Assembly (NCBI GenBank): GCA_001244265.2
Contig: CDLV01000014.1
Coordinates: forward strand, 186,001 to 250,000
DNA from: Microbotryum violaceum
Lineage: Eukaryota
Length of the DNA: 64,000 bases
Direction of reading: 5' to 3'
This document shows positions 24,256 through 53,125 of this stretch, in pieces. Both the position numbers and the translations under genes were made by a program. The notes below the pieces were generated by a model, which was not told where the DNA came from, made no database searches, and was given only the letters and a program-made list of their open reading frames with translations. How positions within the stretch are numbered: the stretch's first letter is position 1; each line of letters begins with the position of its first letter.

Positions 24256-27200
24256 TCAACTCTGGGCTCTGCCTGACTCTCCGTCCTCGGGTTCCTCCAA
24301 GCCCCAACCCGCTTCATCGGCCGTTTCATCCTCGGCAACGGCTTCTGAGGACGTGTTGATTTGTGCATGCGACGCAGGTGGCTTGTCATTCCGTATCCAA
24401 GCCGGTCTTGAAGCCGTGATCGAGGGGGTTGACGTAGCTTCGATTAGAGCGGCGGGCAGAAGACCGCCGCTCTCCTGGGTTGGCCCGTCGTCCGTCCAGG
24501 GGTTGAGTGCAGATTCTTCCTCGTTCGAGGTTGCTTCGGTCATATGGGGCCTCGCGGGAATCGGTGGCTTGGGTTTGGCAATGGGCGCCGTTTCCATTTC
24601 GGGCGTTGCAGCATCCGCCGCGAGTGGTGGCGGTGGGGTGGTCTGTCGTGCTGCTATGCTGCTTGCTGTTGGCGGCTCGAACACCTCAGTGGTGCTTGGC
24701 TTCTCGGACCGGTCCGAGAAAGATGACGGTGGCCCAAACGGAGCTGCGTCACTCGATGTTTCCGATGCGCCATTTACAGAAGCAGTGTTCGGCGATGTGG
24801 AAGGCGGCGGCACAACCGCTGCAGTTTCCGGAGCTGGTGCAGGCGCGGCCATGTGATCTGCAGCAATCGCCTTCCTTTTGGCATCGTCTCGGATCCCAGG
24901 AATCGCCATCATTGTCGCCGGCCGATAAACACGAGCTGGTGCGTTCGGGGGAGATGTAGGTGATTTATGTGTCGTGGTAGGCAGTGGGCGAGGAATCGGT
25001 TCTGTTGGGGATCCGGCGGCTAACGTAGCGACAGCAGAGATCTTGGTCGTCGGGGACGAGGCGGCAGGGGTGAAGTGCGTCTTTGAAGGGGAAGAGGCCA
25101 ACGAATTCTTCTTCGCTCGACCTCCATCACCATTCTCGACCGAAATGGAACCGTCTCCCACAATGGCGACAGGTGCTGAACCCGCCGTTGAAACAGGGTG
25201 GAAATATTCACCCCCGCTGGCCGCGGTCGACTTACTTGCTCGATAGTCTCGGTACGAGCCATCAGCCGCCTTGCCCAAAGTCGGATCGCTCGTGGATGAG
25301 AGTAACGACTGGCCGTCATCTTGTGGAGGCGAGCTGACGTCTTCGTCAATCTTTCGCCGAGCACTCCAGTTTGCTCCCCAGCGCTTCATGGCATCTTTGG
25401 CTTGAGCCACTCCAGCGGCAATCGCTTCTTTATCGGAAGCCTTCGTGCGCCACGACGAAATGATGGAATTGGCCGTGCCAGACACTGGCGGTACAACATT
25501 GCTATCCATCGTTCGTCGAGGCGGAGGGAGTGGGAGTGGAGGCGGTGTCGACGGTTCGGGTCGTGGCTTCGCGAACGAAGGCCGACTGACGGGGGAGACG
25601 TGACTGATGATGGAGTCCCGAGACGATGTCGAGGAGACGGAGCGGGTATGTGCATTCTTGGCAATAGTGCTTGGTTGGGGCAATATGGTGATGGGTGCTG
25701 TTTCCTGGGTTGTGCTCATAGCCGCTGAAGTGATCGGCGCTGTTGCGTCACTCGTCGAGCTTTCGAGGAGATCGACGGAGCTCGCGCCAGGTGAGTCCGT
25801 CAACTTCTTCTCTGTCAGACTTGCAAATGACGTTCCCGTCGTTGCCACCGAGTCTAACGGTGGAGGAACTTCGCCGGAGGCCGAGTTCAAAATAGGGGCA
25901 GTCAGAGAAAGCCCCGCGAGAGCGGGTTTTGTCGCTTCTGCGGGCGGTGAAGGCGCTTCGACCAACACGTCAGGCGATTTGGTGGCAGTAGTGCTTGAGG
26001 GTAGTCCAACGTCGGCCACAGCTTGCTCGACGATGGTCTTCTCGCGCTCACGGCTACGAGCACGAGCTTGTAGCATTTCGCGTAACCTGGCGGCTGAATC
26101 ATGACTTGTCGAAGCAACGGAAGGCACCTGCTCCGACGAACCTGACCGTGGCCTCGATGGGAAGTTCAATTTCGAGGTCTTCACGGGTGAGGTTGAAGGA
26201 GAAGCCGCGTCGGCCGTGGCAACAGAAGAAGAACGATTGTTCCCAAACCACGTTCTCCGCGTGTCCAAGGCTGTGATCGTCGGTGGACTTGAAGCAGTTG
26301 CCTCCTTCGCAGCCGACCTATTCTCGCGCCAGGACGCCAGGCTGAACGATGAGAGACTGGTTGACGATGAGTTGGTCCCATCTTTTTCCAGAGTTCCATT
26401 TTTCTCCAAAGCCGACATATCCAGTGGACTCGAGTCGCCCTCGCTTGACCGCCTTCTCCAAGGCCGCATTCGTGTTGTTGATGCTGACTCTTCATCACCC
26501 GTCGCAGAAGTGGTCGTGTCGTGGGCGCCCTTCTTCCCGCCGACGGTTGGAACCGTTTCGATCAAGCTCGGATCGGCCTCAGCATTCTCGGATTGTCCGA
26601 CGACAGGTGCATCAGCCGGGGCTGGCTCGGACAAGTCGGGCTCTTTGCGTAGTGCGTCACCCCAGATACCTCCTCGAGTGAAAAAAGGCTGCGAGTTGAA
26701 GAATGGAATGTCGTCCATATGTGGGACCACGATCGACTCCATGATCTATTGTACATTTTGGAAGAATTGGTCAGACGGTGTTTCAGAACAAATCAACAAA
26801 GATGAGCCCACTTACGACCTCTCTCAGCCTCGACTCGATCGGGCTCGTAATCATGCTCCACTTAATCTGACGCGTCGAAACGACGGGTTCGACACTCAAC
26901 TTCATCTTCGGCATAGATGTAAATCCGAACCAAAGTCGGTTACTCGGCGGTCGCTTGATCTTGAACAGCATTGTTCCTTCCAGCTCTTTGAGGACGACGG
27001 CGAGGACGAGTTGCACGGAATACGGCTTGAACCTTGATCCCAGGTTGATCGTCGCGACGGTCTCGATTGTGATGCGGAGATCGCCGACGTACGAGAGATG
27101 CACCTCCATGCTCGCGTCGCCTTCGGCTGTCAGCTCCTTGAGCATTGGCTTTGAGAATAATGGCGCGGCGGATCCGACGTTAACCTCTCGGACTTTGATT

Positions 27201-31363: not shown

Positions 31364-34300
31364 TCATACAACCAAGAGGCTTCCATGCTCCCGCCTGACC
31401 GCAACTTGAACTCGCCCGACCACATCCCGAAACCTCTGCCACCACACCTTGCCCTTCTCACCCCCGCCTGCGGACAAGACCGTCTTCTCGAGCCCGTACT
31501 GCTCTTCCAAGATGATCGACCACCACTTGAGCACATCGACCGCCTTCTTCACGTCGTGCCCCTTCTCCCTCTCGCAACACTTCTCCAAGAACTTGGCCAC
31601 GCGCTCGACGTCAGCAGAGTCGGGTAATTCAGGCGAGGCGCACCACGCCTCGATCTTTCTGAACACCTCGTCCGTCGAGCTTTGCTTCTGAAACCGGACC
31701 TGCGCTCGAAACGCGACGGGCACAATCGCGATCCCCATGGCGTTCTTTTGCGCGTTCGAAGTTGTTGACGAAGAAGCGCCGCCGGCTTTTTTGGTACGAT
31801 CCGACAAGACCGTCAGCGCCTTGAGCTTCCTCTTTTCGATTGCACGGTTGCGCAACTGCTCTAATTTGACGTCGTAAGGGAGGTTATCCAACCACGCTCG
31901 ATCGATGCCCAGTAGGTTCAGCTGTTGGTCGGTGACCGTCGTTGGCGACAGTTGTAAGAGCGGGTCGACTTTGGCGGCCGGCGGTGGAACGGGTCGCTCG
32001 GGAGGGGTAGGCGACAGCTCGATCACCTCATTCGGTTCCGATTTGGCTCGCAGCTTTGACTTTGTTGGGCCAGTCTTGGCAAGCGTCGCCTTGGTCACAA
32101 AAGTGCTCACTCCGAAAACGCCTTTCGCTCCCGTTTGGCGTTTAGGGGCGAACTTGGCCTTGCGTGCATCGGCAAGGGCCTCGTCCTGCATCTCCCGAGG
32201 CATCGACCGAAAGACCTCAACGTCGAAGCCGTAATGTCGGAGCTCGGCCTCGTCGGTCTGAGACGTCGTGGGTGGCGGCGGCGGTGCCACTTTGCGCCGA
32301 GCGTTGAACAAGTTCGGCGCAGGCGCCTTCACTAGCTTGGCGTTGGGCTTCGTGGACTTAAACGGAGGAGGTGCCACGCTCGGAGTTAGAGAGGACCGGG
32401 TCGACCGAGTGGGCGGCGGTGGAGGCGCAAGGACCTTGACGTCGTCGGAATCCGAGTCACTGAGTGTGATCACCGACGGCTCCTTCTTCATGACTTTGCT
32501 CCGAGTCTGATGTGCCAGCGGGACAGGCGATGACGCGGATTCGTTACTTAGCAAGACTTGGGGTCGAGAAGGTCCATCGGAGAGCTCGACGGGTGGGACA
32601 GTCAGCGGAGGTGTGATCTGCTTCCCACTCGAACGTGACGTCGACTTGGTCACGGCGCCGAATGAGAGCTTGCCCTGCCCCTTCTCCAGGACGACGTCGA
32701 CTGACTGGCCGTTCTTTTCAAGCTTGTGCAGCTGTATCGCGATTCCGCGCAGTTCTCTACACGGTACTTGCGTCTTCAAGAGCAGTTCCAAGGCGACCTG
32801 GCCGACAATTTGGCCGTCGTCCGTCCCTTTCCCACCTGGACCCGCGATAGCGGATGATACCGACGATGTGAGACACCAGCCGTGACCCAGAAATTTGGGT
32901 GTCTCAAGTGGTGCGTCCGGGTGGCGCTGCATAATCTTGATCGTCAGCTTGCGAGCTTGCATGTCGATTTCCTTGAGGCGACGGGCGGTTTCGACCCCGA
33001 GCTCGAGCATAAAGCGCTTGACCTGCTCGTTCTGCTCGAATCGAATACCATAGTTAACCTCGGTCGACACGGATTGTCGCACTTTGCCGACATCCAGCTC
33101 GCGGCTGTCGATCCCTTTGGCAAATAGGGAGAATTTTTCCCCATTCTGCTTCCCCAGCACACGCGTCAGCTCTGAATGTCGAGTTTTAATTAGACCGCCC
33201 ACGGTTGTGACATTGAGCTCATCTTTGAGCTTGTCGCGAGTGCTCCATCCAATACCGGGCAAAGCGTCGACGTCAAGGGGCTCGAGATGAGAAGCGACCA
33301 ATTCCGGCGTCAAATGAAAAGCTGAGGCCGGCTTAGCCTTCCTGGAAGCCAAACGAGCGAGCAGGATGTTGTGAGAGATCCCGATCGAGGCCGAGCATCC
33401 CGTCGCTTCGAAGATCTCGGCTCGGATGCGATGTGCGTAGTCGAGCAGCGGGTCTTGCGATGAAGTCGGTGCTGCCATGGGCTTGACTTCCATCAACACC
33501 TCGTCGACCGAAACGGCTTGCAACAGCACCGAGTGCTTGAGCAGGATGCGGTAGAACTTTGACGAGATACTCTTGTAAAGTTCAAAGTCGAATGTGATCG
33601 TCTTGATTTCAGGACATAGCTCACGTGCACGACCCAGGCTCATCCCGTTCGCAACGCCCTTGGCCCTTGTCTCGTAGGAACAGCTCGCGATCTCGCTGGT
33701 GCTCGTCTCGCTGTCCTGGCCGGCCTGGGCATGGCAGACAGCGACGGGCTTGCCTCGTAGATCCGGCCGCTTGGTCAAACCGGCACTGACGAAGAAGCAG
33801 TCGAAGTCGACGTGCATAATCGTGCGGGCATCACTGGGTAGGCCAGTCAGTTTCGTGGTGCGCTGTGGTGGGCCCGAGCTCGATTGTAGCCGGGCAACCA
33901 ATGCCTTAAGCTCCTCTTTCCAAGTCGAAATGTGGTGTAGTCGAGACTGTGCGAAGTAAGTCGAGAGAAAATCCTCAGATACCGACGTGTGCTTGGCCAT
34001 CCAGACGGGGTCATCGAGCAGCGCCGTGGTCCGATTGTTGATGAGGCGCCGCGGTAGGTAGGGATGGGTGTCGGCTTCGCCAGTGGCCGCATCAATCTTC
34101 GGGGGGTATATTTGGCCTTTCGGCTTCGTGGGCGATTTGGGCTTGGTGGACGGCTGGCCTGCTGAGCGAGGTTGGAAAAAGTTGGCTGCAGGCGAAGATT
34201 TCGATGACGCCGCGGCCTCGGCGGCCAGGGCATCTTCAGCCAAGCGCCTGCCTCGTTCGGAAAGGCTCTCCATCGTTTCTGTGTTGGCATTGTTTGACTG

Positions 34301-35394
34301 GGGGACTTGCAACTCCTCGTGAGAGCTTGCGTCGGGCTCGTCTTCGATGATGGCGATCGGAATCGTTCGTTTCGTAGGTCTCTCCGGGACCACGTCACTC
34401 GGATCGAGTGCAGAGTTGGATGACGTCGATGTCGTCAAATCATCGGCTTCGTGAGACCTCTTTTTGCCGCTGAACATCCCGAACAAGCTCGGTTGTGCCC
34501 TTTGCGTCCCCAGTCTCGACTCCTCGTGGTCGTAACCAAACCTCGGCGTCGTCTTGGTCTCGGCCGTTGAAACTGCCAGCAAAGCGTAGCGCTTCCAGTC
34601 GAGCAGCTTGCCCGCCTCCACGGACTCCAAGATCCAGACTGGGGTTGCGATCTTGTACTGGCGAAACTCGTGGCGCTTCTTGGGTGTCAGCTCCGAGGCG
34701 ACAATGTGAGTGACCATGCTCTTGCGATCGAGGTAAGGCACGTAGATACCTCCGTGCAGGGTGAGTAGACGACTGAGCTCTTGGACTGTCGCTTCTTTGG
34801 TGTATCCGTTGATCTGTGGCCAAGATGGTCGCTTTGTTTAGCTCTCACCCAGAGACTGTCTTGCGCTTACGGTAGCGAACATGGTCTCAGACTGACGTAG
34901 ACGGCCAGCCCTTTGAGGAACTGTGGCTTCTCCTCCCCACCGTGGTCTTCCTTGAATGCGGCTTGTTGCACCATCAACTTTCTTCTCTTGTTGTGCAAGT
35001 ATAGACCCTGCGGTAATGATCATGTCGGACGTCTGAAGGTCAGCAATGTCGCACGGGGTCTCAACCGGCCGCCGTTGTCGCTCCTGGAGTGACGTACGCC
35101 CTGGCCGAAACCTGTCACACCGTATTCATTCCCATCCCTGTAGTCGCCCTTTGCTTCGGGCGGTGGTAGCTTGTACCTCACTGTGATCGGCTTGTCGTCG
35201 TCGTCATCGCCGCCGGTTCCCTGTTCGCTGCCTGGCTTCGGCGACGACGTTGAGTGAAGCAAGACCGGGTCCAGCTGCCGCAACAGGTCTGCTTCAAAGT
35301 CCTGGTCAGAGTCGGAGAAGTAGTCGTGTTTGTCTTCGTCAAGTTCTGACATGGATTTGTGACTGTTGGCCACATCAGGTCTAACCGAACCCAT
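31364..35394 (-). CDS. REV1: Y-family translesion polymerase / dCMP transferase with N-terminal BRCT domain
   Basis: BRCT 'AVY|INGYT...LHGG...THIVAS...TPVWILES', N-digit 'SRLHHISTWK', 'MHVDFDCFFVS', 'SEIASCSYETR', 'VSVDE', 'LPGIGW' and 'VSTEVNYGIRF'. Two short 5' exons. Confidence 0.95.
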
Positions 35395-42002: not shown

Positions 42003-44135
42003 CTATTGGATCCACTTGGACCTCGCCCGAAGCCTGGGCCCGGTTCGGATCAAGAGGTACAATAACGGTACCATGATGAAGGTCAGCCCTGAAAGCACTG
42101 AGCACCCCACCCCGAGCCCGAGCGCATTGAAGTAGTAACCTCCGAAGAGAGGAAACATACTGGCGAAACTTGAACGGAAGAGATCGTTGCCTGCCAGGAT
42201 TGACGCGGCCAACGTGGGTGGGTAGGAGCTCGAGATGTACACGAGGATGCATTGAAAGATGAGGAAGATGCCGGGGAGGTATAGACCCGCTCCGATTGTG
42301 GGGACGATCCAGTGCGTTTCTTCCTCGCCAGCCCAGCCGAACATGAGGAGTGACACGGGAATGAAGAGGCCGGCGACGACCCCGAGTTCGAGGCGTGCTT
42401 CGGGGACAAAGCCAGGTCGATCCATTCGGGGATTGAAGTGGTAGACCACGTAGAGAACGTAGAGCCCAAAGGTGATGAGGCCAGAAACGATAAAGGCCAG
42501 GTAAGGTAAACCAGAGATACCGAGGGAGAAGCGATACGTCTCGTTGTAAACGATCGGGAATGCTTCGAACCAGAGGTAGAAGCAGGCGTACACCAAGGCG
42601 ATATACGAGTTGGCGAAGAGCACCGCTGGCTCAGCAGTAAGCTGGAACGCACGTTTAAGATTACTCCGGGCCAGTTGAACGAAATTCTCCCCCGCAATGG
42701 CGTCGATCTCTGCCTGGGTCCGGAAACGACTGTCACCCGTGCGGAGGCGGAGGCGCTCAGCCCGGCGGATGAGGATTGTTGACTCGAGGGTCTCGGGGAG
42801 TAGGAAGGAGAGTACGAGAAAGGCGAAACCAGAGATCCACATCAGCTCCCAGTTCGGCCAGGTCCATCCTTTGGCTTGCGCTGCGAATGATCCCTTCGAG
42901 ATGATGAGCGCAGAGCTGAAGGTCAGTCGCAGTTGGCCGACTCCTAAGTCGAGCTAATTTTGACCTACGATTACGGGGCCAAGTACGGGGCCAGATACCG
43001 CTCCTATGCTCCAGACGCCGATAGCAATTGGAGCATGTCGGGGACCAAAAAGGTCGAACATGCTAGCCCCTTTTACAATGCAAAGGGTGTGAGTTTCTGA
43101 CTTCAAGGACCACACAGGTCGTGCGGAGGCATGGAGGCACGCACCTCCTGTCGCTATTGCGGGTGACCCGGCGAAACCAGAGGCGAAGCGGAAGACGAGG
43201 ATTGTCGCCATATTTGGTGCAAACACAATGGGGAACTGGAAGATAAAAAAGAAGAGGAGGCCGATGATGTAGACAGGGGTTCGGCCCTGTCGAGGCATCT
43301 CTTGAAGGGGGGCGAGGAACATAGGCCCGATGCCGTAAGCGAGCACTGCAAAGACGGAGGGCAAGTCATGAGCCCCACTGTAATCGTAGTCATAGGTTGT
43401 AGCCCGTCCTAGGTGCCTAACCAGTACAGACACAAAGAAGGCATCCCCTCCAGCCGGAATGTATCCTTTCCAGTATATGATGTACTCACCGAACAACGAT
43501 AGCCCGAGGGTCGCAACGACTGGAGAGATATCAAAGTTATCCAACAGACCCGGAATGGAGGGTGTAAAGATTGGACCACCGATGTATACACTGAATGTGA
43601 GGAAGGCAACCAAGCTAGCGACAAAGCTCTTCTTTCCTGTCGACCAGTTCATCGGACGATCAGGGTCGTTGTCCTCGAACTCGACGAGGAAAGGGTTCTT
43701 CACGAGAGGCGCGGGCGAGGGTCTGGCGGCTTCCTCGTTCGCATTGCCCTTGTCGATGTCGATGTCGGAGATAAGTATCCGGGGAACCGGAGGTGCAGGT
43801 GGGGATGTAGGGTGCTCGACACTGACTCGACCCGTATCAAAGTCCAAGACCACTTGGGGGGGATCGGGGTCTCGCTCGCCGGTAGAATCCTCCTCCTCTT
43901 CCTCGGCAATGTCCTGCAACGAAGAAACGGAACGGTTGCTTCTGCTCCCATCGATAGAAGCAGCAGCGGCGTTATCATCGAAAGGATCACGGACGGTAGA
44001 GGCATCCAAAGCAGCGCGGTAGCGTTCCGGAAGAACGTAGTGGGGGCGTTGGTCTGCGAAGGGTAAGAAGTGACCGCGTGTGAGGCGGTTAAACAACTGG
44101 CCGATAGTCGAATCGCGAATGATATCTGGCGCCAT
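42003..44135 (-). CDS. MFS multidrug transporter, DHA1 family (Flr1/Caf5/Mdr1-like), multi-exon
   Basis: 'MAPDIIRDSTIGQ', 'DPDRPMNWSTGKK', 'YGIGPMFLAPLQEMP..GRTPVY', 'GFAGSPAIATGG', 'GPVLGP', 'LPETLESTILIRRA', 'PEARL' and 'ASILAGNDLFRS', with multiple TM helices. Confidence 0.93.
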
Positions 44136-44516
44136 GGTCGGAGATGGTTCAAGTCAAAGCGCAGGTGATGCAAAAGGTTATCAAGGAAGTAAGAGAGCGC
44201 ACGGCGGCTATTTTGAAAGCGAAATTTGGTCGCTGAGTCTGTGGCGAGAGTTTCGGCGCGCCGACGGGCTGGGTGCGAGGCAGGGGTGAAAGTCCGGAAC
44301 AGACGGTGCGCTGCGCAGAGAGTGGTGTCTGACCTTTCTGAGTCAGCCTCGGGGCCGACGGTCTCGCAGAACGGACGCCGGTATGGGTGTCACAGGAATG
44401 CTCCGAACAAAGCCTAGCATCTCATAAGAAACAGTGAAAGTCACGCCCCGTGGAAGAGGCTGTCTCAGTCTCAAGCGTAGGAACTTCCTGCGTATATCAC
44501 TGAGGGTCGGTTAATT

Positions 44517-44940
44517 CCGGTAATACCCATTCTGAAGGATATTACCCAGGTCTCACCTGGGTATTGTCCCGAGCGCGCCTGGGTAATACCCAGCTGACGG
44601 GTAATACCCAGGCGCGCGGTATTAACCCCACGTCGGGCATTAACTCTCTGACGGGTATTACCCATCTCCGCGGGTAATACCCAGCCGACGGGGAATACCC
44701 GGGCGCGCGGTAATACCCCCAGCCGGGTATTAACTTTGACATGGGTAATACCCAGCTTACGGGTAATACCCAGTCGAGGGTAATACCCGGCTGGGGGTTA
44801 ATACCCAGCTGAATGGGGTTAATACCCAGCTGAAGGGGGTAATACCCAGCTGAAGGGGTAATAACCAGGCGCGCGGTAATACCCCCAGCCGGGTATTAAC
44901 TTTGACATGGGTAATATCTGCCTGGATGGTTATTCCCCGG
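44517..44940. repeat. Left subterminal array of about 22-23 GGGTAWTACCC-like palindromic units at ~17-21 bp spacing
   Basis: Counted by eye. Includes a ~49-bp duplicated block (44702-44750 and 44868-44916) and tandem 'ggggt(t)aatacccagctgaa' units at ~44794-44866. Confidence 0.92.
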
Positions 44941-45089
44941 CCTCCGGGTTTCTTCTGTACGTGCAGCGTGGTTACTACCGGGTCTGGGTTGTTACCACCG
45001 CAATACCACCACTCGGATGTCTAGAACTTCTCTGTAACACTCTTGCCTCTGGCAGTGGATGAAACAGACGAGTGAAGGAAGCCAGTGTA

Positions 45090-48000
45090 TTATTCCAGGT
45101 TCAGAAAATTGGGCCGAGCTTCGTCATCCATCCGGTCAAAGATGTACTCCCGGGACTCCTCTCGACCAACCCTCCGATGTATGCGACCAGCTGAGCCGAG
45201 GATGCACCGCAGATCCACAATCTCGACCGCTCCTGAAGCACGTTTACCTTGAGTGAAAAACAAATTCTGATGCTTGTGCCCTCCTACAACAGACAAAGCC
45301 TTCCTCTTTTGCCGCTTTGGCGTCGGCTTGGCAATCGGGGCCCGTTCGACCGTGTCGACAGGTTGCAAGTGGCTCAAACCAAGCGACCTTACCTTCCCAA
45401 GCAGGAAGTTCTATGAAGCGAGAGGAATGTGTCAGGGTCGTAAGGCCGCCTGGCACAACCAAGTGCGAATGCGCGCACCTGCTCCCCATATCGGAACTCA
45501 TAAATCGCCAAAAGTTGACCAAAATGTTTGACACGATCGGCTCCTTCGCCTTCACGAGGGAACGCCTGAGAGTTGTCTCTTGCACGACGTCGACTACTGT
45601 CTATCAATAGATCGTACTGAAAATGCTTCCTCAGCGTAACTGTAATCGTAACCTGGTACTATAACTTACTGAGATCCATGAAGCATCCCGTGTGTCTGCA
45701 GAAACTCTTGCATGCTTTGACAGTCGCTTCGCCGCCGCAATCCGGTCCCGTCCAGAGTCCATGCGGTAGCCTTCAAAAGAATTGATCGACAAGCTCAAAA
45801 TTGATGTCCTGATTGCGTCAACCTATGCGGCAGTGAGCCGCAGATTAGCAATTCGAAATGCCGGATGGATCTGAACCAAATGTGAATACGCACCTTTCGC
45901 TTGAAGACCACAGGGGCCAGCTGACCAAACAATTCGCGTGCAATGAATTGCGCAACTCGCATTACATCGTTGATACCCGGTCCCTGCTTCAGCTTGTCAC
46001 TGCGCCGTCCGTAAAGACCCAAAGCTTCGGCCCCCGAGTCCCCATTTTCACTCGAAGCTTGTCGTGATGCGGCCGCGGACGAACCGCGCATTTGATCTCC
46101 CGTTGCGTTCATGAATAACCCCCGTGACTGTTGCATCTGCTTGTCCTGCTAATGCTTCATCAGTGCCGGTACAGTGATGGGATAAGAGAAGCGAGGAAAG
46201 CGCGAACACGCCATTTGCAAAGCAGCATCCGCACACACATCTGCATGGGTTACAGAGAAGTGGTCAGAGATTTTACATCGCAATCAACTCGTATTCCTTG
46301 GGCAGAGCATTACTGACAACAATTCACTGCTTCATACGGTAGACAATGAGCCTTGCTTGCAACACGCTTGACCGTTTGGTTGAGCTGCTCCATGGCAAAG
46401 CACCAAGTCATGGCAGGTGGCCCATGCCATTCGATGAAATCGGCTATGTGTAAGACCGCATGAACCGAGTGCGGCAAATTGATCAAGTGAACTGATTTCC
46501 CTGAGTAATATAATCTGAAGCCGAGGTAAACAAGGCAGATTAGGGTCAGATGACTGAGGTCCTTCAGGGAAGAGTGGCACCGTGAGGGCTTACAATTCAA
46601 ACTCGGTACACCAGGAGGCTATGTCACGTCGAAGAGCGCCATCCTTGGCTACATCCTCCTTGTTGATTTTCATAGCCATGCAATCTTTAACCCACCTCCG
46701 AAGCGCCAGGAAGTGGGCGAAATATTTGGCGGGCAGTCAATCATGAAGAACACAGGGGCCAACATAGAGAATCCAGTTCGACCAATCCTCTGCAGTCATT
46801 GCTCCAGTCTGTAGGTGGATGTTGGGCATCTTTCGAGCGAATAGGCTGGGTATTGTCTTTGCGCCGTTGGTAATTTCCTGGCCAATGTCCTCCCATATTT
46901 TGTTTGGTATCACCCAGTCAGGTAAGTCGGTCCCAAGCGCTTCGTCTACTGCGGCCGCGGACGTCGTTGCTTCTGCACTAGCCGCCGATGTCACCTTTCC
47001 TTGCGCGGATCTGCCTCTCTGAGCTTGTGGCGCCTGGATCTTGTAACCCTTTGATTTCTGAGCCGCCAAGTCACCATGCCACATATTGAAGAGCTTTCGA
47101 GCGACGTTTTCGAAGACAGCGTGCATGAAGTCCGAAGGTCCGTCTTGATGAAGCGAAAATCCAGGAAGGTGCGCCGCCGAGCTCAGCTTGCTGAGGCCGA
47201 ATGTAGATTTTTTTTCCGATGCCGCTTCGCGGATCGTTGCTTCCGAACGCATGGGAAGATCCAAAGCGGTCAGATCAGATCGGTTCGCATGCGATGAGTC
47301 GAGAGGCATCTTGAGGGGGTAGTATTGTGATTGTGGGCAGCAGCGCATGGAACCCTTGAATGAGGCAGACTCGGCAAGGCCATTTGGCGGTTGGACCCTT
47401 GAAACCAAGCATCTTTGAGAGAGCAGGTCCGTCGCCTCCAATCACGTGTATGAACCATCGCTGTCGCACCATGGTCTGTCAATGCGGCAATGTGAATCAG
47501 TCTCCACGGGGCGGAGGATATGCAGGACTTAACTCGGCGACGCTATTACACACCTCTGTAACACCGTCAAAGACCATGTGTCCGTTTCTAGCCGATGCTC
47601 GAGCATCTTCGTAGAGGGGATGAAGAAATGAATCAATGTCTTTGGGGCCCTTGGGGCCGGGTATGATGCCGACGGTCATGAGATGCTTCTTCTTGTAACG
47701 TATCTCTGGCGGTAGGTTGTAATTGATCATCATGATTGGCCAGCATTCGCTCTGAGTCTTGTTGAATAGTTGAATGCCATCGGTGAACAGCCCGAACGCG
47801 ACGTCGACATCGTTCTCATAATACTTGACGTTGATTGTAGAGACGGTCGGTTGGGATGCACCTGCGATAGGTGGGTTCGTCCATGATATGTTCTGATCCA
47901 GCTTCTCGCGATAACGATCACCGTCAAATAAGTCCACGACCTCTTGAGGATCTCGATTGCGCTCAAAGTCGGATCGATAACCCATCAAGGAGGCGTACAC

Positions 48001-49287
48001 TCGATCGCGCAGGTAGATGTTTAAGCACACGTCGGGCGACAGGTACAGAAATGTATTTTGAGGATGGCCATTTTGATCCAGTTTCGGCGAACTGCGTACT
48101 GGACAACGTGTCAATGCTTCTCTCGGCCCAGTGAAAGCAACACAGGTCTTGACGCAGCAGGGTATCCGAACAGGCTTCAAGCCTAAATCGACGAACTGTC
48201 AGCGAACACTGCGCTTTCAAGATCAAGAACGGAATGCAACCCGACTACTTACCTGTCAATGCAAACACTCGAGCACGTACTTTCTGCAAACTAGGCCGAC
48301 TCCCAAGTACCTCCCAGATTTTGCTCGCCTGGCGCGTCATCTTGTACATATGTCGAAAAGAAAAGTCATACAGTGTGTCCACGTCGTAGTACGGGAGAGC
48401 CTTGGCTGAAGGCAGTGGAGCAGAGGTTCACATCAGGGACGCAGCACTCGCCTACTCACTAGCAACATTCAATTTATGATATGAATCTCACCCAACTCGA
48501 TCTCTTGGCGAACTTCCTCCTCTGCCACTGCGCGCTCCTGGGAGCTGGACAATCGGGATGTGGTGGGTGTGTTGTAGACACCATTGGCATCCAACCGTTG
48601 ATCCCCTCCCAAAGTTCCTCGACGACAAGTGGATCGTCGTCGTCGAATGGGAGCGAGCTCGAACTGTAATTGTCGAGGGGCTGCAGGGCGGGGGATGTCG
48701 TCTCCAAAGCGGAAGTCATTTCAAACAGTTGTGTCTGGCGAAGTACGTCTTGGTCCGACTCCAGTGCATGGCCTTCGAAACTGTCCATTGACCCCCCCAT
48801 CCAAGAAGCTCGCTCGAAATCGTAATCGCCTTCAGGGATCTGGGGAAGCTCGGGGCTGATGTTCATACTGAATTCTTCGCTCTCGTAGGGCAGCGATGGT
48901 GAGTTTGGTGCATTGGTGTGCGAAATATTACTCGAGACGCTGCCATAGGCTTGTGTGTCGTTTGAAAGCGTCGAGTCATTGAGCTGAGCGCCCATCGAAG
49001 AACGCCTTTCGCGACACGATTCGCTCGGCGGATTGGGTATATTTTTGTGGCGAGCGGGTTGCGAATCAACTGGGTGTAGGTCGTGGGGGCTGGAATAATT
49101 GAGACTGGGGACCAGGCGGTGCTAGAAGCATCGATGGCTGCCGCGGTACCTCGAGAATGGCAGCCTCTTCGGTAGCGCGGGGTTCATTAGGTTGTCGAGC
49201 GTGATGGCGGTAGAAGGTCGCTTTTGACACTGAAGCCCCTTTGCACCAGGAACAAGGGCATGGGCGAGAGGTTGTGTTGCCCGCCAT
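45090..49287 (-). pseudogene. Transposase (Transposase_21/Tnp2, TnpD-like), intron-containing, disrupted by frameshifts and stops
   Basis: N-terminal 'CPCSWC...SKATFYRH', 'CVKTCVAFTGP', 'LFTDGIQLF...WPIMMINYNLPPEIRY...IIPGPKGPKDIDSFLHPL', 'GDGPALSKMLGFKG...PCRVC', 'DFMHAVFENV', 'HAVLHIADFIEWHGP...WCFAMEQ' and 'VDLRCILGSAGRI...YIFDR'. Frameshifts near 49085 and 47350, stop at 46737-46739. Confidence 0.88.
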
Positions 49288-49487
49288 GGCGGAGCGAACG
49301 AGCGGTGCACGTTTACCACCGTTGAGGGTCCGGAAGAAGACTTTGCAAAAATTGTGGCGCAGTCGGCGCAGTCGTGCAGTTTGCGTGCGCGTCTTCGTTT
49401 CTCTGTTTCTCTCTTTCCCTCCTTCCGCCCACGTGTTCAGTCCTTCTCCCACCCACCATTCATCCACTGCCACACGGGAGCGCCGCA

Positions 49488-51031
49488 ATGGCAGGATCTG
49501 CATCAGACAAGGACAAAGAGAACCAAAGACGGAATGGGAAGGGCACTGGTGAGCTCAGCATGCAGTACTTGTTCTGATTCAAGGATTTGCTTCGCCAGGT
49601 TCGGGCTCAGGTTCGGGCTCAGGTTCGGGCTCAGGTTCGGGCTCAGGTTCGGGCTCAGGTTCGGGCTCAGGTTCGGGCTCAGGTTCGGGCTCAGGTTCGG
49701 GCTCAGCTGGTTCGGGCTCAAGCGCTCAGACCTCAGGAGGCCTCAAGCTTGGGCCGAGTCTCGTTCGGGCTAAGTCAGCCACATTTTCGCTGACGTGTGC
49801 CGCATCGGTCCACTGCAGCCAGAAAATACATTGATGCCGACGGCATGTACGCACGAAAAGACAAGGGCAATATGGGCTTGCGTGATTATACTTGCAAGCG
49901 CGGGCAAATTGACAAAATCTATTACAATTGGGTTCGCGTAAGTGCCGGCAAGTCCAGCGAGCAGAGCCCCACTACCGACTAGCTCTGACATCCCTGTGCC
50001 ACTCGTAACCTTCCTCGACCCAGTCGGTGGTGCGGGACGCACTAGTAGTGGCAGGGATCAGGACACCTACCCCGGTCCAGCTGTATGGGCCGCTTGCGGA
50101 GATCAACCAGGAGTGGTCCCCCAACCACGACCTGCCCGAAAACTACGATCTCAAGGACGCCTTCAGACTCATCTCTGCCAATACTAGCACAAACACAGTC
50201 TTGTGGGGGAATCTCTCCCTTTGAAGCAACGAGAAATCGTCAAGTATGTAAGTAACACTCCCCCCCCCGGTCGTCACCTTGTTGTGCGCTCGCTTGCGTG
50301 CTGACCAATTACTCCTCCATTGGCACTTGGTCAGATTCGCGAACGGGCTGGTTTCCTTGCGGTCACATCCGGCGACTGGCTCTATGAAGAACTCGTCATC
50401 GATGTCTTGGCAAATATTCGGTCCGCCTGGAAATTAGCGTACGATCGCGAAGTGTGCCGGCTTGCGGGAATCAAAGGTCAGCTCTCCAAAGCAGACATAG
50501 CGACACTCCGCAGTAGGCATGGTGAAGGTCCCAGTCGGAAAGTTAGCCCCTTCTTCTCAACCAGATCGGACTGGATGGTATGCACTGATGAGACCGTGAT
50601 GACTCCTTCAGAGCCAAGACGGGGTCTATTCGGCTTCAGATACAGGCACAAGCGACCTCGAAGAGGAAGAAGTGCTGGCAACTAGGAACAGGACCCTAGT
50701 GCCCAAGAAGCGAGGAGCGCGCCAAGGAGCAGGATCGCCACAATTGTCGCAGGAGACTCAACAAACAAGCCCCCACGTGGGTTCAAGCGGCCAACGTTCG
50801 ACTCCTGCAGCCAGCGGTGTCAGAGGCCCGGGCCCGCCAAGAAACAAGAAGAAGAAGACCGAACACAAGGCTAACAGAAGCCAACAGACCAACCCAAAGA
50901 GAGACCTTGGCAACGGTCGAGCTGAAGAAGAAGAAGACGAGGATCAGGGACAGGATGAAGAAGAAGTCGAAGGAAGTGGAACGGTCTCCAAGGACTTGAG
51001 GAAGCGGAGCACGCGCGGCAGCTGCGGATGA
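49488..51031 (+). pseudogene. Second transposon gene of unknown function (candidate TnpA-like accessory protein), about five exons, one apparent frameshift
   Basis: ATG at 49488. Introns with GTGAGC/GTAAGT/GTTAGC donors and CAG acceptors. Exons include MAGSASDKDKENQRRNGKGT, (GS)n, RKYIDADG...YYNWVR, SVVRDAL...WGNLS, IRERAGFLAVTSGDWLYEELVIDVLANIRSAWK and a Lys/Glu-rich tail. Frame break at ~50218-50224. Confidence 0.6.
49596..49703. repeat. Minisatellite (CAGGTTCGGGCT)x9, perfect, followed by a degenerate unit
   Basis: Read directly from the sequence. Encodes (GSGS)n in the spliced frame of the second transposon gene. Confidence 0.97.
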
Positions 51032-51317
51032 TTTGGATGCCAACGATCCAAACTATCCGGCTACGGGTCAAAGATGGTAACGGAGGTAGACACTTGCTAG
51101 ATAAATACTACAACATCTGGCATGCAATACAAAAAGGCTGCATTAACATTAGTAATATGAACGCGAGCATTAGTAATTTATGATACAGACCCTAATGAGT
51201 AAGCTAATGCCAATTGAGCTCGCACTAGCATTTAATGATACAGAACCTAATGAGCAAGCTAATGTGAACTAAGCTCGATCACGCTCCCGAAAAGAGCCCC
51301 TATTGAGACTTTTTGGA

Positions 51318-51440
51318 TGGTATTACCCATTAAAATTGGAAATACCCGAACCGAAGGGAATACCGTCTGCTTGGGTAATACCCATCCTGATGGGTAATAC
51401 CGCAGCCCAGTCAATACCCATTCAGATGGGTATTCCCCGC
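51318..51440. repeat. Right subterminal array of about 7 GGGTAWTACCC-like units
   Basis: ggtattaccc, gaaataccc, gggaatacc, gggtaataccc, gggtaatacc, tcaataccc and gggtattcccc at ~18-20 bp spacing. Confidence 0.85.
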
Positions 51441-51865
51441 CAAAAACGTCGCTCAGTGGTATGGCAGCAGACCAGGCTGCGGTGGGCCCGCTCTACCTGC
51501 GGCTGAGGAGGGCCGAAAGGTGGCGGCTAGTAATTAAGTAGTAGCGACGCCGAGCAGGCTGCGAATCTGTGCCATGATGTGTACTGAAGAGTGGAGCCCC
51601 AACTGGGAGCAGGTGATACCAATCGGTGATCAGGTCATCCCATTTGTTTCTGACACTTTACATCATCTCCGCTTCGCGGCTTCGGGCCTCGGATACTCCG
51701 CCTCAGTCCCGGCCGCCCCGCCGGCGGCAGTCGTCGGCTGACGTTCCAAGTGCCTGAGAGAGTGCCTCCACTGCCCCTCGATTGTGGGGCGTGGGGTGTC
51801 ATTAAGCATTGCCGGCGACGCTCTCACTCCGGACCCCTCATCACGCCCACTCACCACATTCAAGC

Positions 51866-53125
51866 ATGTCGACCTACCCACCCATCAAGCTCTCAGATGG
51901 CAAAGAGATCCCGGGCATCGGCTATGGCGTCGGTACGGCCTGGTTCGGCCGCGGCGGGATCGACACCGAGCTCGTCGAGGCGATCGTCCTCGCGCTCAAG
52001 ACGGGCTACACCCACATCGACGGGGCACAGGCCTATGGAAACGAAACCAGCGTCGGAGAGGCTCTGAAGCAGGCCGCTATCCCGCGCGAGAAACTATTCA
52101 GTTAGTCGTTCTTTTGGCTTGGTTGGTCCCTCCCCGCCAGCGCCGCGGGAAGAAGTGGGGGAGGGCCGCCGCTCGGAAGTAGCGATAAGCGAGCAGGCGG
52201 CTGTTGCCAAGAAGTGATGAGTGACTGACCGGCTCTTCAAGGTGAAACACTGCACAGTCACGACCAAAGTTGGAGGAAAGGGTCTCAAAGATATCGGAGC
52301 CTCTTGCCGCAAGTCCTTGCAGGAGATGGGAATCAACTACGCTGATCTGTGAGCTCATAAGTGACCTCAATGAGATCGATTGTTCCGATTTCAAGAGGCA
52401 TTGAGCACTGACCCAACTGTTTTGCGCTAATTCATCAGCTACCTCATTCACTGGCCCTACGACTTTGGCAAGGACGGCGTCCCGACGGCCGAAGACTGCT
52501 GGAAAGAGATGGAGAAAGTCAAGGCCGAGGGCTTGATCAAGTCGATCGGTGTATCCAACTACCGCATCCAAGATTTGGAAAAGACTCTCGCTGTGGCCAA
52601 GGATCGACCAGTTGTGAACCAGATCGAGTTTCACCCGCGAGTGTTTGAGAAGGCCGAGCCCTTGTTCGAATTCAGTGAGTTCTCGCCGCAAATGGACTCG
52701 ACTTGCTTGAAAAAAGGTCGGAGCTCCTCTGAGCGATCTCAAATTCACATTGTTTTGTTCAATTTTTCACTCACGCAGTGAAAAAAGAAGGAATCGCTCT
52801 CGAAGCGTACGGCCCCACGACGCCCTTGACAAAGTTGGTCGGCGAGCCGCTCGACTCGGTCTTGAAGCAAGTCGCCACGACGGTCTCTTCTCGCACCGGC
52901 TCCAACGCGACCGTCGAGCCTTCTCAGGTGCTGCTCTTGCTTGCGCACCAACTGGGCGCTGTCGTCATCACGACCTCGAGTAAGGAGTGGAGGATGCAGC
53001 AGCAGCTTGAATCGGCTGGCCTACCCAAGTTGACCGAGGCCGAAATCGATCAGATTCGAAAGGCCGCCACGCCGCAGCAGAGGAGGTTCATGCAGCACAT
53101 GGACAATGATGCACCGGCTTATTAG
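51866..53125 (+). CDS. Aldo-keto reductase, four exons
   Basis: 'IPGIGYGVGT', 'GYTHIDGAQAYGNE', 'REKLF|.TTK', 'L|YLIHWP', 'EGLIKSIGVSNY' and 'PVVNQIEFHP'. The D-Y-K-H catalytic tetrad is present. Confidence 0.93.

Follow-up and report, generated by a model that had tools for sequence, protein, structure and literature searches.

Maize En/Spm produces TnpA and TnpD from one co-oriented, alternatively spliced transcript that starts near one end of the element, and its second protein binds the subterminal repeats and pairs the ends. In MuDR, which belongs to another superfamily, mudrA and mudrB lie on opposite strands within one pair of terminal inverted repeats (TIRs), convergent and driven from the TIRs. 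We have analysed a 64-kb window of DNA from the anther-smut fungus Microbotryum violaceum (contig CDLV01000014.1 of assembly GCA_001244265.2, positions 186,001 to 250,000; all coordinates below are those of the window) and report a 6,961-bp element at 44498-51458, a single copy that is structurally of full length. The element is very probably a copy of a Microbotryum-restricted EnSpm/CACTA (CMC) family of cut-and-paste DNA transposons, with both genes inactivated here. Among elements of a known superfamily it is ordinary and decayed; its gene arrangement is mildly unusual, and its partner gene is an orphan. What is unusual is only the divergent orientation: the transposase and a lineage-specific partner gene point outward from the middle of the element.

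The likeness to maize En/Spm extends to the CACT-type termini, to asymmetric subterminal arrays in which a short motif recurs both directly and inverted, and to a Transposase_21 (TnpD-type) DDE transposase accompanied by a second element-encoded protein. Unlike in maize, the two genes are on opposite strands (transposase minus, starting at 49287; partner plus, starting at 49488), with central starts and with 3' ends directed toward the termini. The earlier sequence-only reading of this DNA had already set this layout apart from the single co-oriented maize transcript, and we agree with it. The partner also has no similarity to TnpA (Pfam Transposase_24 or related) or to any other Pfam family at E<=0.1, the termini are CACTG rather than CACTA, and the perfect part of the TIR spans only 7 bp.

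Fungal CACTA relatives have been known since 2006 (DeMarco 2006, PMC1636069), and by 2017 Repbase held 28 fungal CMC families, with expansions in Pucciniomycotina (Muszewska 2017, PMC5751038, Table 1). Annotations of Microbotryum genomes likewise list CACTA as one of their TIR classes (bioRxiv 10.1101/2022.08.03.502670). Kojima (2025, PMC12730594), in the passages on these elements, describes fungal EnSpm with CAC..GTG termini, 3-bp target site duplications (TSDs) and additional captured genes. Because CACTA is listed for Microbotryum and fungal EnSpm families with extra genes exist, the kind of element reported here is already known. The fungal EnSpm elements of Pucciniomycotina and Agaricomycotina, as these accounts present them, share with ours a basidiomycete host (Microbotryum belongs to Pucciniomycotina), 5'-CAC..GTG-3' termini and a CMC-type transposase with a C(2)C motif, and internal extra genes are common among them (PMC12730594; PMC5751038). 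They differ in the nature of the extra gene, which by their published descriptions, the basis of this comparison in place of Repbase sequences, is a TET/JBP dioxygenase. We rejected an assignment to the TET-bearing fungal DNA transposons: when the 22 open reading frames (ORFs) of the element were compared with Pfam, no TET/JBP match was found, nor any other family beyond the transposase domain and sub-threshold hits to a Gly-Ser repeat.

Two further systems invite comparison. SmTRC1 and its animal and fungal CACTA relatives share the Transposase_21 domain and a second, fast-evolving protein without detectable homologues, which the authors proposed as a TnpA analogue in SmTRC1, where a 2-bp direct repeat flanks some copies; unlike here, alternative splicing of co-oriented transcripts yields the SmTRC1 proteins, and the termini begin with CCC (PMC1636069, in the parts that treat this element). 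The IS3EU families, with a transposase and an alpha-kinase gene (PMC12730594), resemble MuDR and our element in placing a transposase and an accessory gene on opposite strands within one TIR pair; both MuDR and IS3EU belong to other superfamilies, and MuDR genes converge whereas those described here diverge from the centre. Genes in opposite orientations are carried by other superfamilies in the account of Kojima as well (PMC12730594). In a search of the published literature, with supplements and Repbase/Dfam outside its scope, we found only superfamily-level mentions of Microbotryum CACTA/EnSpm and no description of the present family; the same search found no CACTA element with a head-to-head or otherwise oppositely oriented layout.

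Beyond superfamily counts, the DNA transposons of anther smuts are little characterised, and how transposable elements accumulate on Microbotryum mating-type chromosomes is a topic of active study. Repeats in the genus would be annotated better with a curated full-length EnSpm reference that includes the ends, the binding-site arrays and the two genes.

Termini, subterminal arrays and target site

The non-genic features of the element are the following.

44498..44530, plus strand: left terminus, a perfect 7-bp CACTGAG followed by an imperfect terminal inverted repeat (24/33 against the right end)
44519..44979, no strand: left subterminal array, 22 GGTAATACCCA sites at a spacing of 15-24 bp (with a few larger gaps), mostly direct, some inverted
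51319..51437, no strand: right subterminal array, 6 GGTAATACCCA sites, direct and inverted
51452..51458, minus strand: right terminus CTCAGTG, which may reach G 51459 if the TSD is TAT

Both termini are where the sequence-only reading had placed them, with CACTGAG at 44498-44504 on the plus strand and its reverse complement, CTCAGTG, at 51452-51458. The heptamer by itself is no rarity, occurring 9 times in the window where 10.2 would be expected; the two ends nevertheless stay in ungapped register beyond it, with 7/7 matches and then 24/33, including AATACCCAT (binomial p ~3e-8). The asymmetry of the subterminal arrays, also claimed earlier, is borne out by the counts. When the ~18-bp unit GGTAATACCCA was sought at <=2 mismatches, 35 merged sites were obtained: 22 on the left, 6 on the right and 2 in the interior, while the other 5, all weak, lie beyond the element. 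All 34 matches to GGTAATACCC at <=1 mismatch fall within 44519-44900 or 51318-51437, where 1.09 would be expected by chance. Tandem Repeats Finder describes the left array, which lies past the 3' end of the transposase gene, as 16.6 copies of period 18, and the array units are present in both orientations. The termini and the asymmetric subterminal arrays are real and far beyond chance. Together with the PF02992 transposase described below, they uphold the assignment to the CACTA/EnSpm type: the element has 5'-CAC(TA/TG)...GTG-3' termini with terminal inverted repeats, and subterminal arrays whose 10-20-bp units run both directly and inverted. A Plavaka element was considered and rejected, because that group needs 5'-TGT..ACA-3' (PlavakaA) or 5'-CATCA..TGATG-3' (PlavakaB) (PMC12730594, section 3.2.2) and the termini here are CACTG..CAGTG.

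The target site is less clear. The flanks at symmetric boundaries read ...TATAT on the left and GTATG... on the right, which gives AT against GT and, as had been pointed out for these boundaries, no 3-bp match (TAT against GTA), whereas fungal EnSpm elements are described with 3-bp TSDs (PMC12730594). A perfect TAT/TAT appears if the right end takes in G 51459, and a perfect TA/TA if both ends shift outward by one base (44497/51459); each comes from one copy with a shifted boundary, and neither is statistically compelling once such shifts are allowed.

The second of these shifts, with T and G as outermost bases, would suit membership not of EnSpm proper but of a neighbouring CMCT lineage, ESTA-like or Mirage-like, whose target duplications are the 2-bp TA, and ESTA, which is defined by its TA TSDs, is reported from Pucciniomycotina (PMC12730594). 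We consider this assignment improbable. A 2-bp match after a boundary shift is weak (1/16 per trial), and CAC..GTG termini are described as the EnSpm signature (PMC12730594). The closest database match to the transposase, P0001, scores 65.5 bits against Transposase_21 (E 5e-18; Pfam cutoff 28.6), and ESTA transposases are tied to their relatives only through HHpred similarity to RAG1, as the same source presents them (PMC12730594).

Between the accessory gene and the right array, 51130-51270 is a stretch richer in A+T; by eye it holds two similar segments of ~50-60 bp, each with 'aatgatacaga(a/c)cctaatgag', below the thresholds of the repeat tools used.

Two divergent genes

The genic features, including the spacer that separates the two start codons, are as follows.

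45090..49287, minus strand: transposase gene (EnSpm/CACTA DDE, PF02992), nine exons; a pseudogene in this copy, by comparison with its relatives
48491-48406, 48280-48196, 47553-47476, 46593-46554, 46317-46241, 45893-45823, 45669-45617 and 45478-45411, minus strand: the eight transposase introns, all GT-AG
49288..49487, no strand: spacer between the divergent start codons, exactly 200 bp, which has a tract rich in pyrimidines near 49390-49430; putative promoter of both genes
49488..51031, plus strand: accessory gene with no known domain, six exons and five GT-AG introns; broken in this copy
49488-49548, 49740-49773, 49823-49937, 50024-50247, 50335-50541 and 50612-50999, plus strand: the accessory exons
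49596..49720, plus strand: 12-bp microsatellite, 10.2 copies, 97% matches, in accessory intron 1

The minus-strand transposase proposed from 49287 is confirmed by domain and by homology. Among the 22 element ORFs scanned, one (47497-48198, minus strand) matches PF02992 Transposase_21 at E 6.6e-15 and 55.3 bits, against a cutoff of 28.6. The best database match is P0001, a 1221-aa M. silenes-dioicae gene model that represents a cluster of 15 sequences and is 97% identical; its residues 1-1221 all map onto 49287-45093, in 11 high-scoring segment pairs, and it served as guide for placing the introns. At 93-98% identity, the closest relatives of the encoded proteins are gene models of M. silenes-dioicae and M. 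lychnidis-dioicae, which places the DNA in an anther smut or a very near relative. The nearest transposase from outside Microbotryum is 39% identical over the catalytic ORF, a figure whose weight is limited by the word-based search. P0001 was aligned, over the greater part of its sequence, with a Peniophora protein of 1052 aa and with six relatives from fungi and plants that are shorter. Residues that do not vary among these eight transposases (D449, D539, C558, C561 and D640-M-H) are all present in the window translation, and we read them as catalytic and zinc-type residues. The C558-x2-C561 pair is thus located, while an H(3-4)H pair was not located with confidence.

The transposase frame is also open upstream of its ATG, at 49288-49554 (minus strand), with another in-frame ATG near 49503. 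A start there would place the transposase gene over exon 1 of the accessory gene, which is read from the opposite strand; in the database model the start is at 49287. A second M. silenes-dioicae model, P0002, consists of a transposase fragment fused to Copia gag-integrase.

The spliced second gene that had been read on the plus strand from 49488 likewise stands. Its ATG opens a short exon that ends at a GTGAGC donor, and three of the five GT-AG introns have GTAAGT or GTGAGC donors. In the frame of its relatives the stop is at 50999, and the window's own frame runs on to a stop at 51029-51031. A 126-aa ORF (50305-50682) matches three proteins, P0011, P0012 and P0013, all Microbotryum gene models, at 86-93% identity. 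P0011 (245 aa, named 'variant') and P0012 (342 aa, a cluster of 8) are both 90-93% identical over the query ORF; P0013, an M. silenes-dioicae model, is a Copia gag fused to a fragment of the accessory gene. The Copia fusions in P0002 and P0013 point to nested Copia insertions in other copies of the family. When P0012 was compared with 1.84 billion representatives, only 10 proteins reached E<=1e-3, and one of these is a repeat protein whose match is spurious. Among shorter proteins, three named matches were obtained, two from M. lychnidis-dioicae and one from M. saponariae, at 68-76% identity, and more diverged relatives (P0016, P0018 and P0019 among those found) are 57-68% identical. Every named relative is from Microbotryum. 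Clusters of 15 (transposase) and 8 (accessory) member sequences are as expected of a multi-copy element. Judged by these matches, the accessory gene is a real annotated, multi-copy, spliced gene restricted to Microbotryum. The partner had been called unrelated, and in the Pfam searches it is unrelated to TnpA or to any known family. At the looser threshold of E<=1 the accessory protein matches PriX alone (E 0.17), and it has no match in PHROGs. In the ESM Atlas, only unnamed basidiomycete clusters were found, at 0.87-0.88, below the 0.9 lead threshold. The product is predicted to be a helical protein of ~340 aa with a charged disordered tail: the AlphaFold2 model, itself of poor quality, places helices at residues 113-206, followed by a long disordered tail of basic and acidic residues.

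The microsatellite in intron 1 reads as a Gly-Ser repeat in one frame and is partly coding in gene model P0014. Pfam hits to TrAA12 and CFAP143 in the overlapping ORF 49553-49834 were rejected, as they lie on this Gly-Ser microsatellite and fall below their own cutoffs.

The outward-facing two-gene layout is real in this copy, and the head-to-head spacing of about 200 bp given by the sequence-only reading is exact, the two ATGs being separated by 49288-49487. Since both 3' ends face the termini and the ATGs are only 200 bp apart, transcription must start centrally, and the spacer is probably a shared bidirectional promoter, as its geometry suggests. On the model of maize En/Spm, the transposase of an intact copy would cut at the CACTG ends and carry out DDE cut-and-paste excision and insertion, and either it or, more likely, the accessory protein would bind the GGGTAATACCC repeats and pair the ends; both genes would be driven from the 200-bp central spacer. 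That the accessory protein is a functional stand-in for TnpA is an analogy that we put forward tentatively, the supporting features being limited to its position, its multi-copy behaviour and its basic/acidic tail. It would then be a possible case of a TnpA-like end-binding protein that evolved independently. The fuller proposal is somewhat doubtful in our judgement: that a Microbotryum-specific EnSpm lineage may have swapped its TnpA-type partner for an unrelated, fast-evolving helical protein, co-expressed with the transposase under a bidirectional promoter that is central, not terminal. If true, expression control would be uncoupled from the subterminal repeats, which mediate autoregulation in maize En/Spm.

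Several points weigh against our overall account of the element. At E<=0.1, Pfam recognises no family in P0011, P0012 or the accessory ORFs of the window, and so no detectable DNA-binding domain; a comparison of the accessory protein with PDB sequences gave 0 matches at E<=10. The AlphaFold2 model, built on an 11-row alignment, has a mean predicted local distance difference test score (pLDDT) of 48.5 and a predicted template modelling score (pTM) of 0.26, and the Foldseek search of the PDB with it (78 matches at E<=10, 0 at E<=0.001) is meaningless at such model quality. The shared promoter is proposed from geometry rather than transcripts, and the TnpA-like role by pure analogy. The ends and the TSD have been judged from a single copy, as has the constancy of the two-gene layout, and in this copy symmetric boundaries yield no 3-bp TSD.

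The absence of a domain, a fold or a homologue outside Microbotryum would also suit a mere passenger: a host or orphan gene, specific to the lineage, that the element has captured or that lies in it and that has no role in transposition, the transposase alone recognising the termini and subterminal repeats. Fungal DNA transposons, EnSpm included, are described as picking up extra genes passively (PMC12730594). We nevertheless think a passenger unlikely. The accessory gene lies inside the TIRs, with its start 200 bp from that of the transposase; it is multi-copy (the cluster of 8, the P0013 fragment fused to Copia gag elsewhere, and diverged paralogues at 57-68%, with named ones in two other Microbotryum species); and it decays together with the transposase in this copy. 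In its position, multi-copy state and joint decay, it behaves more like a gene of a transposon than like one of the host.

A divergent two-gene layout with an orphan partner is a small, testable addition to the variety of CACTA architectures. Should the layout prove constant across copies and absent from Repbase, it would represent an undescribed architectural variant of CACTA elements. It has no bearing on a long-standing open question, and the present copy is inactive.

Decay of this copy

The sequence-only reading called the transposon complete. This holds for the structure (ends, arrays and both genes) and fails for autonomy, because both genes carry stops and frameshifts relative to their closest relatives. 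Compared with P0001, the transposase has stops at residues 74, 771 and 928 (49068-49066, 46739-46737 and 46151-46149), four frame changes without room for an intron (near 49001, 48608, 47352 and 47325) and a 15-nt in-frame deletion in exon 6. The frame changes near 47352 and 47325 destroy a G-V ... Y-x-P-L reading that is kept in all eight aligned transposases, with Y576 and P578 invariant; because the lost reading is so conserved, these changes in the catalytic region are not quirks of the P0001 model. An intron across the junction at residues 565-576 was considered, for which the best candidate, 37 nt with a GC donor, is implausible, and we read the junction as two frame changes. The accessory gene was judged against P0011, P0012 and P0014 and the more distant P0015 to P0019. 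The loss of 1 nt from a C run near 50215 brings in a stop at 50219-50221, and the frame changes a second time near 50975. On this comparison, both genes are inactivated in this copy, which consequently could not move on its own.

Other considerations pull the opposite way. P0001 is itself a gene prediction, and the two N-terminal frame changes, near 49001 and 48608, are called against this model alone. Polishing errors specific to repeats could in principle account for frameshifts at short homopolymers, and 4 of the 6 frame changes are at such runs (GGG, a single T for an expected TT, GGG and CCC). It nonetheless seems to us highly improbable that the lesions are assembly or polishing artefacts within a repeat and that the copy is intact and autonomous. 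Three lesions are base substitutions that make stop codons, one frame change removes ~8 nt, and there is the 15-nt deletion besides. Long host ORFs of the window are uninterrupted, among them those of 1157 aa (31367-34837), 829 aa (24259-26745) and 622 aa, so that a generally error-prone assembly is unlikely.

The TCG depletion of the element, which is typical of mutated repeats, argues in the same direction. The ratio (TTG+CAA)/(TCG+CGA) is 1.02 in the element against 0.53-0.70 across all 44 flank windows of equal size, and G+C is 0.53 against 0.56 in the flanks. The stop at R771 is a change of the TCG-to-TTG type. Both the depletion and the R771 change fit the hypermutation of TCG resembling repeat-induced point mutation (RIP) that is reported for Microbotryum repeats (PMC12730594; bioRxiv 10.1101/2022.08.03.502670, in the passages concerned), and the family appears to have undergone such RIP-like TCG-to-TTG mutation.

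Genomic setting

The entire 64-kb window has three direct-repeat families of >=40 nt, and every one of them falls inside the element, which is a solitary insertion in unique DNA. The surroundings are gene-rich, with G+C of 0.55-0.60 in the window. Pfam searches with 100 long ORFs outside the element recovered ordinary housekeeping genes, with matches to PI3-kinase, M16 insulinase, dyskerin-type pseudouridine synthase, REV1, GH1, GH2 mannosidase and class-II aldolase, among others. Rfam gave 0 matches in 44000-52000. One neighbour of the element is a gene resembling major facilitator superfamily (MFS) transporters (minus strand, ORFs 42957-44389); on the opposite side, a region without Pfam matches is followed by the GH2 mannosidase gene. 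The insertion lies ~110 bp upstream of the long ORF of the MFS-transporter-like gene (gap 44390-44497), and has cut this gene off from most of its former upstream region.

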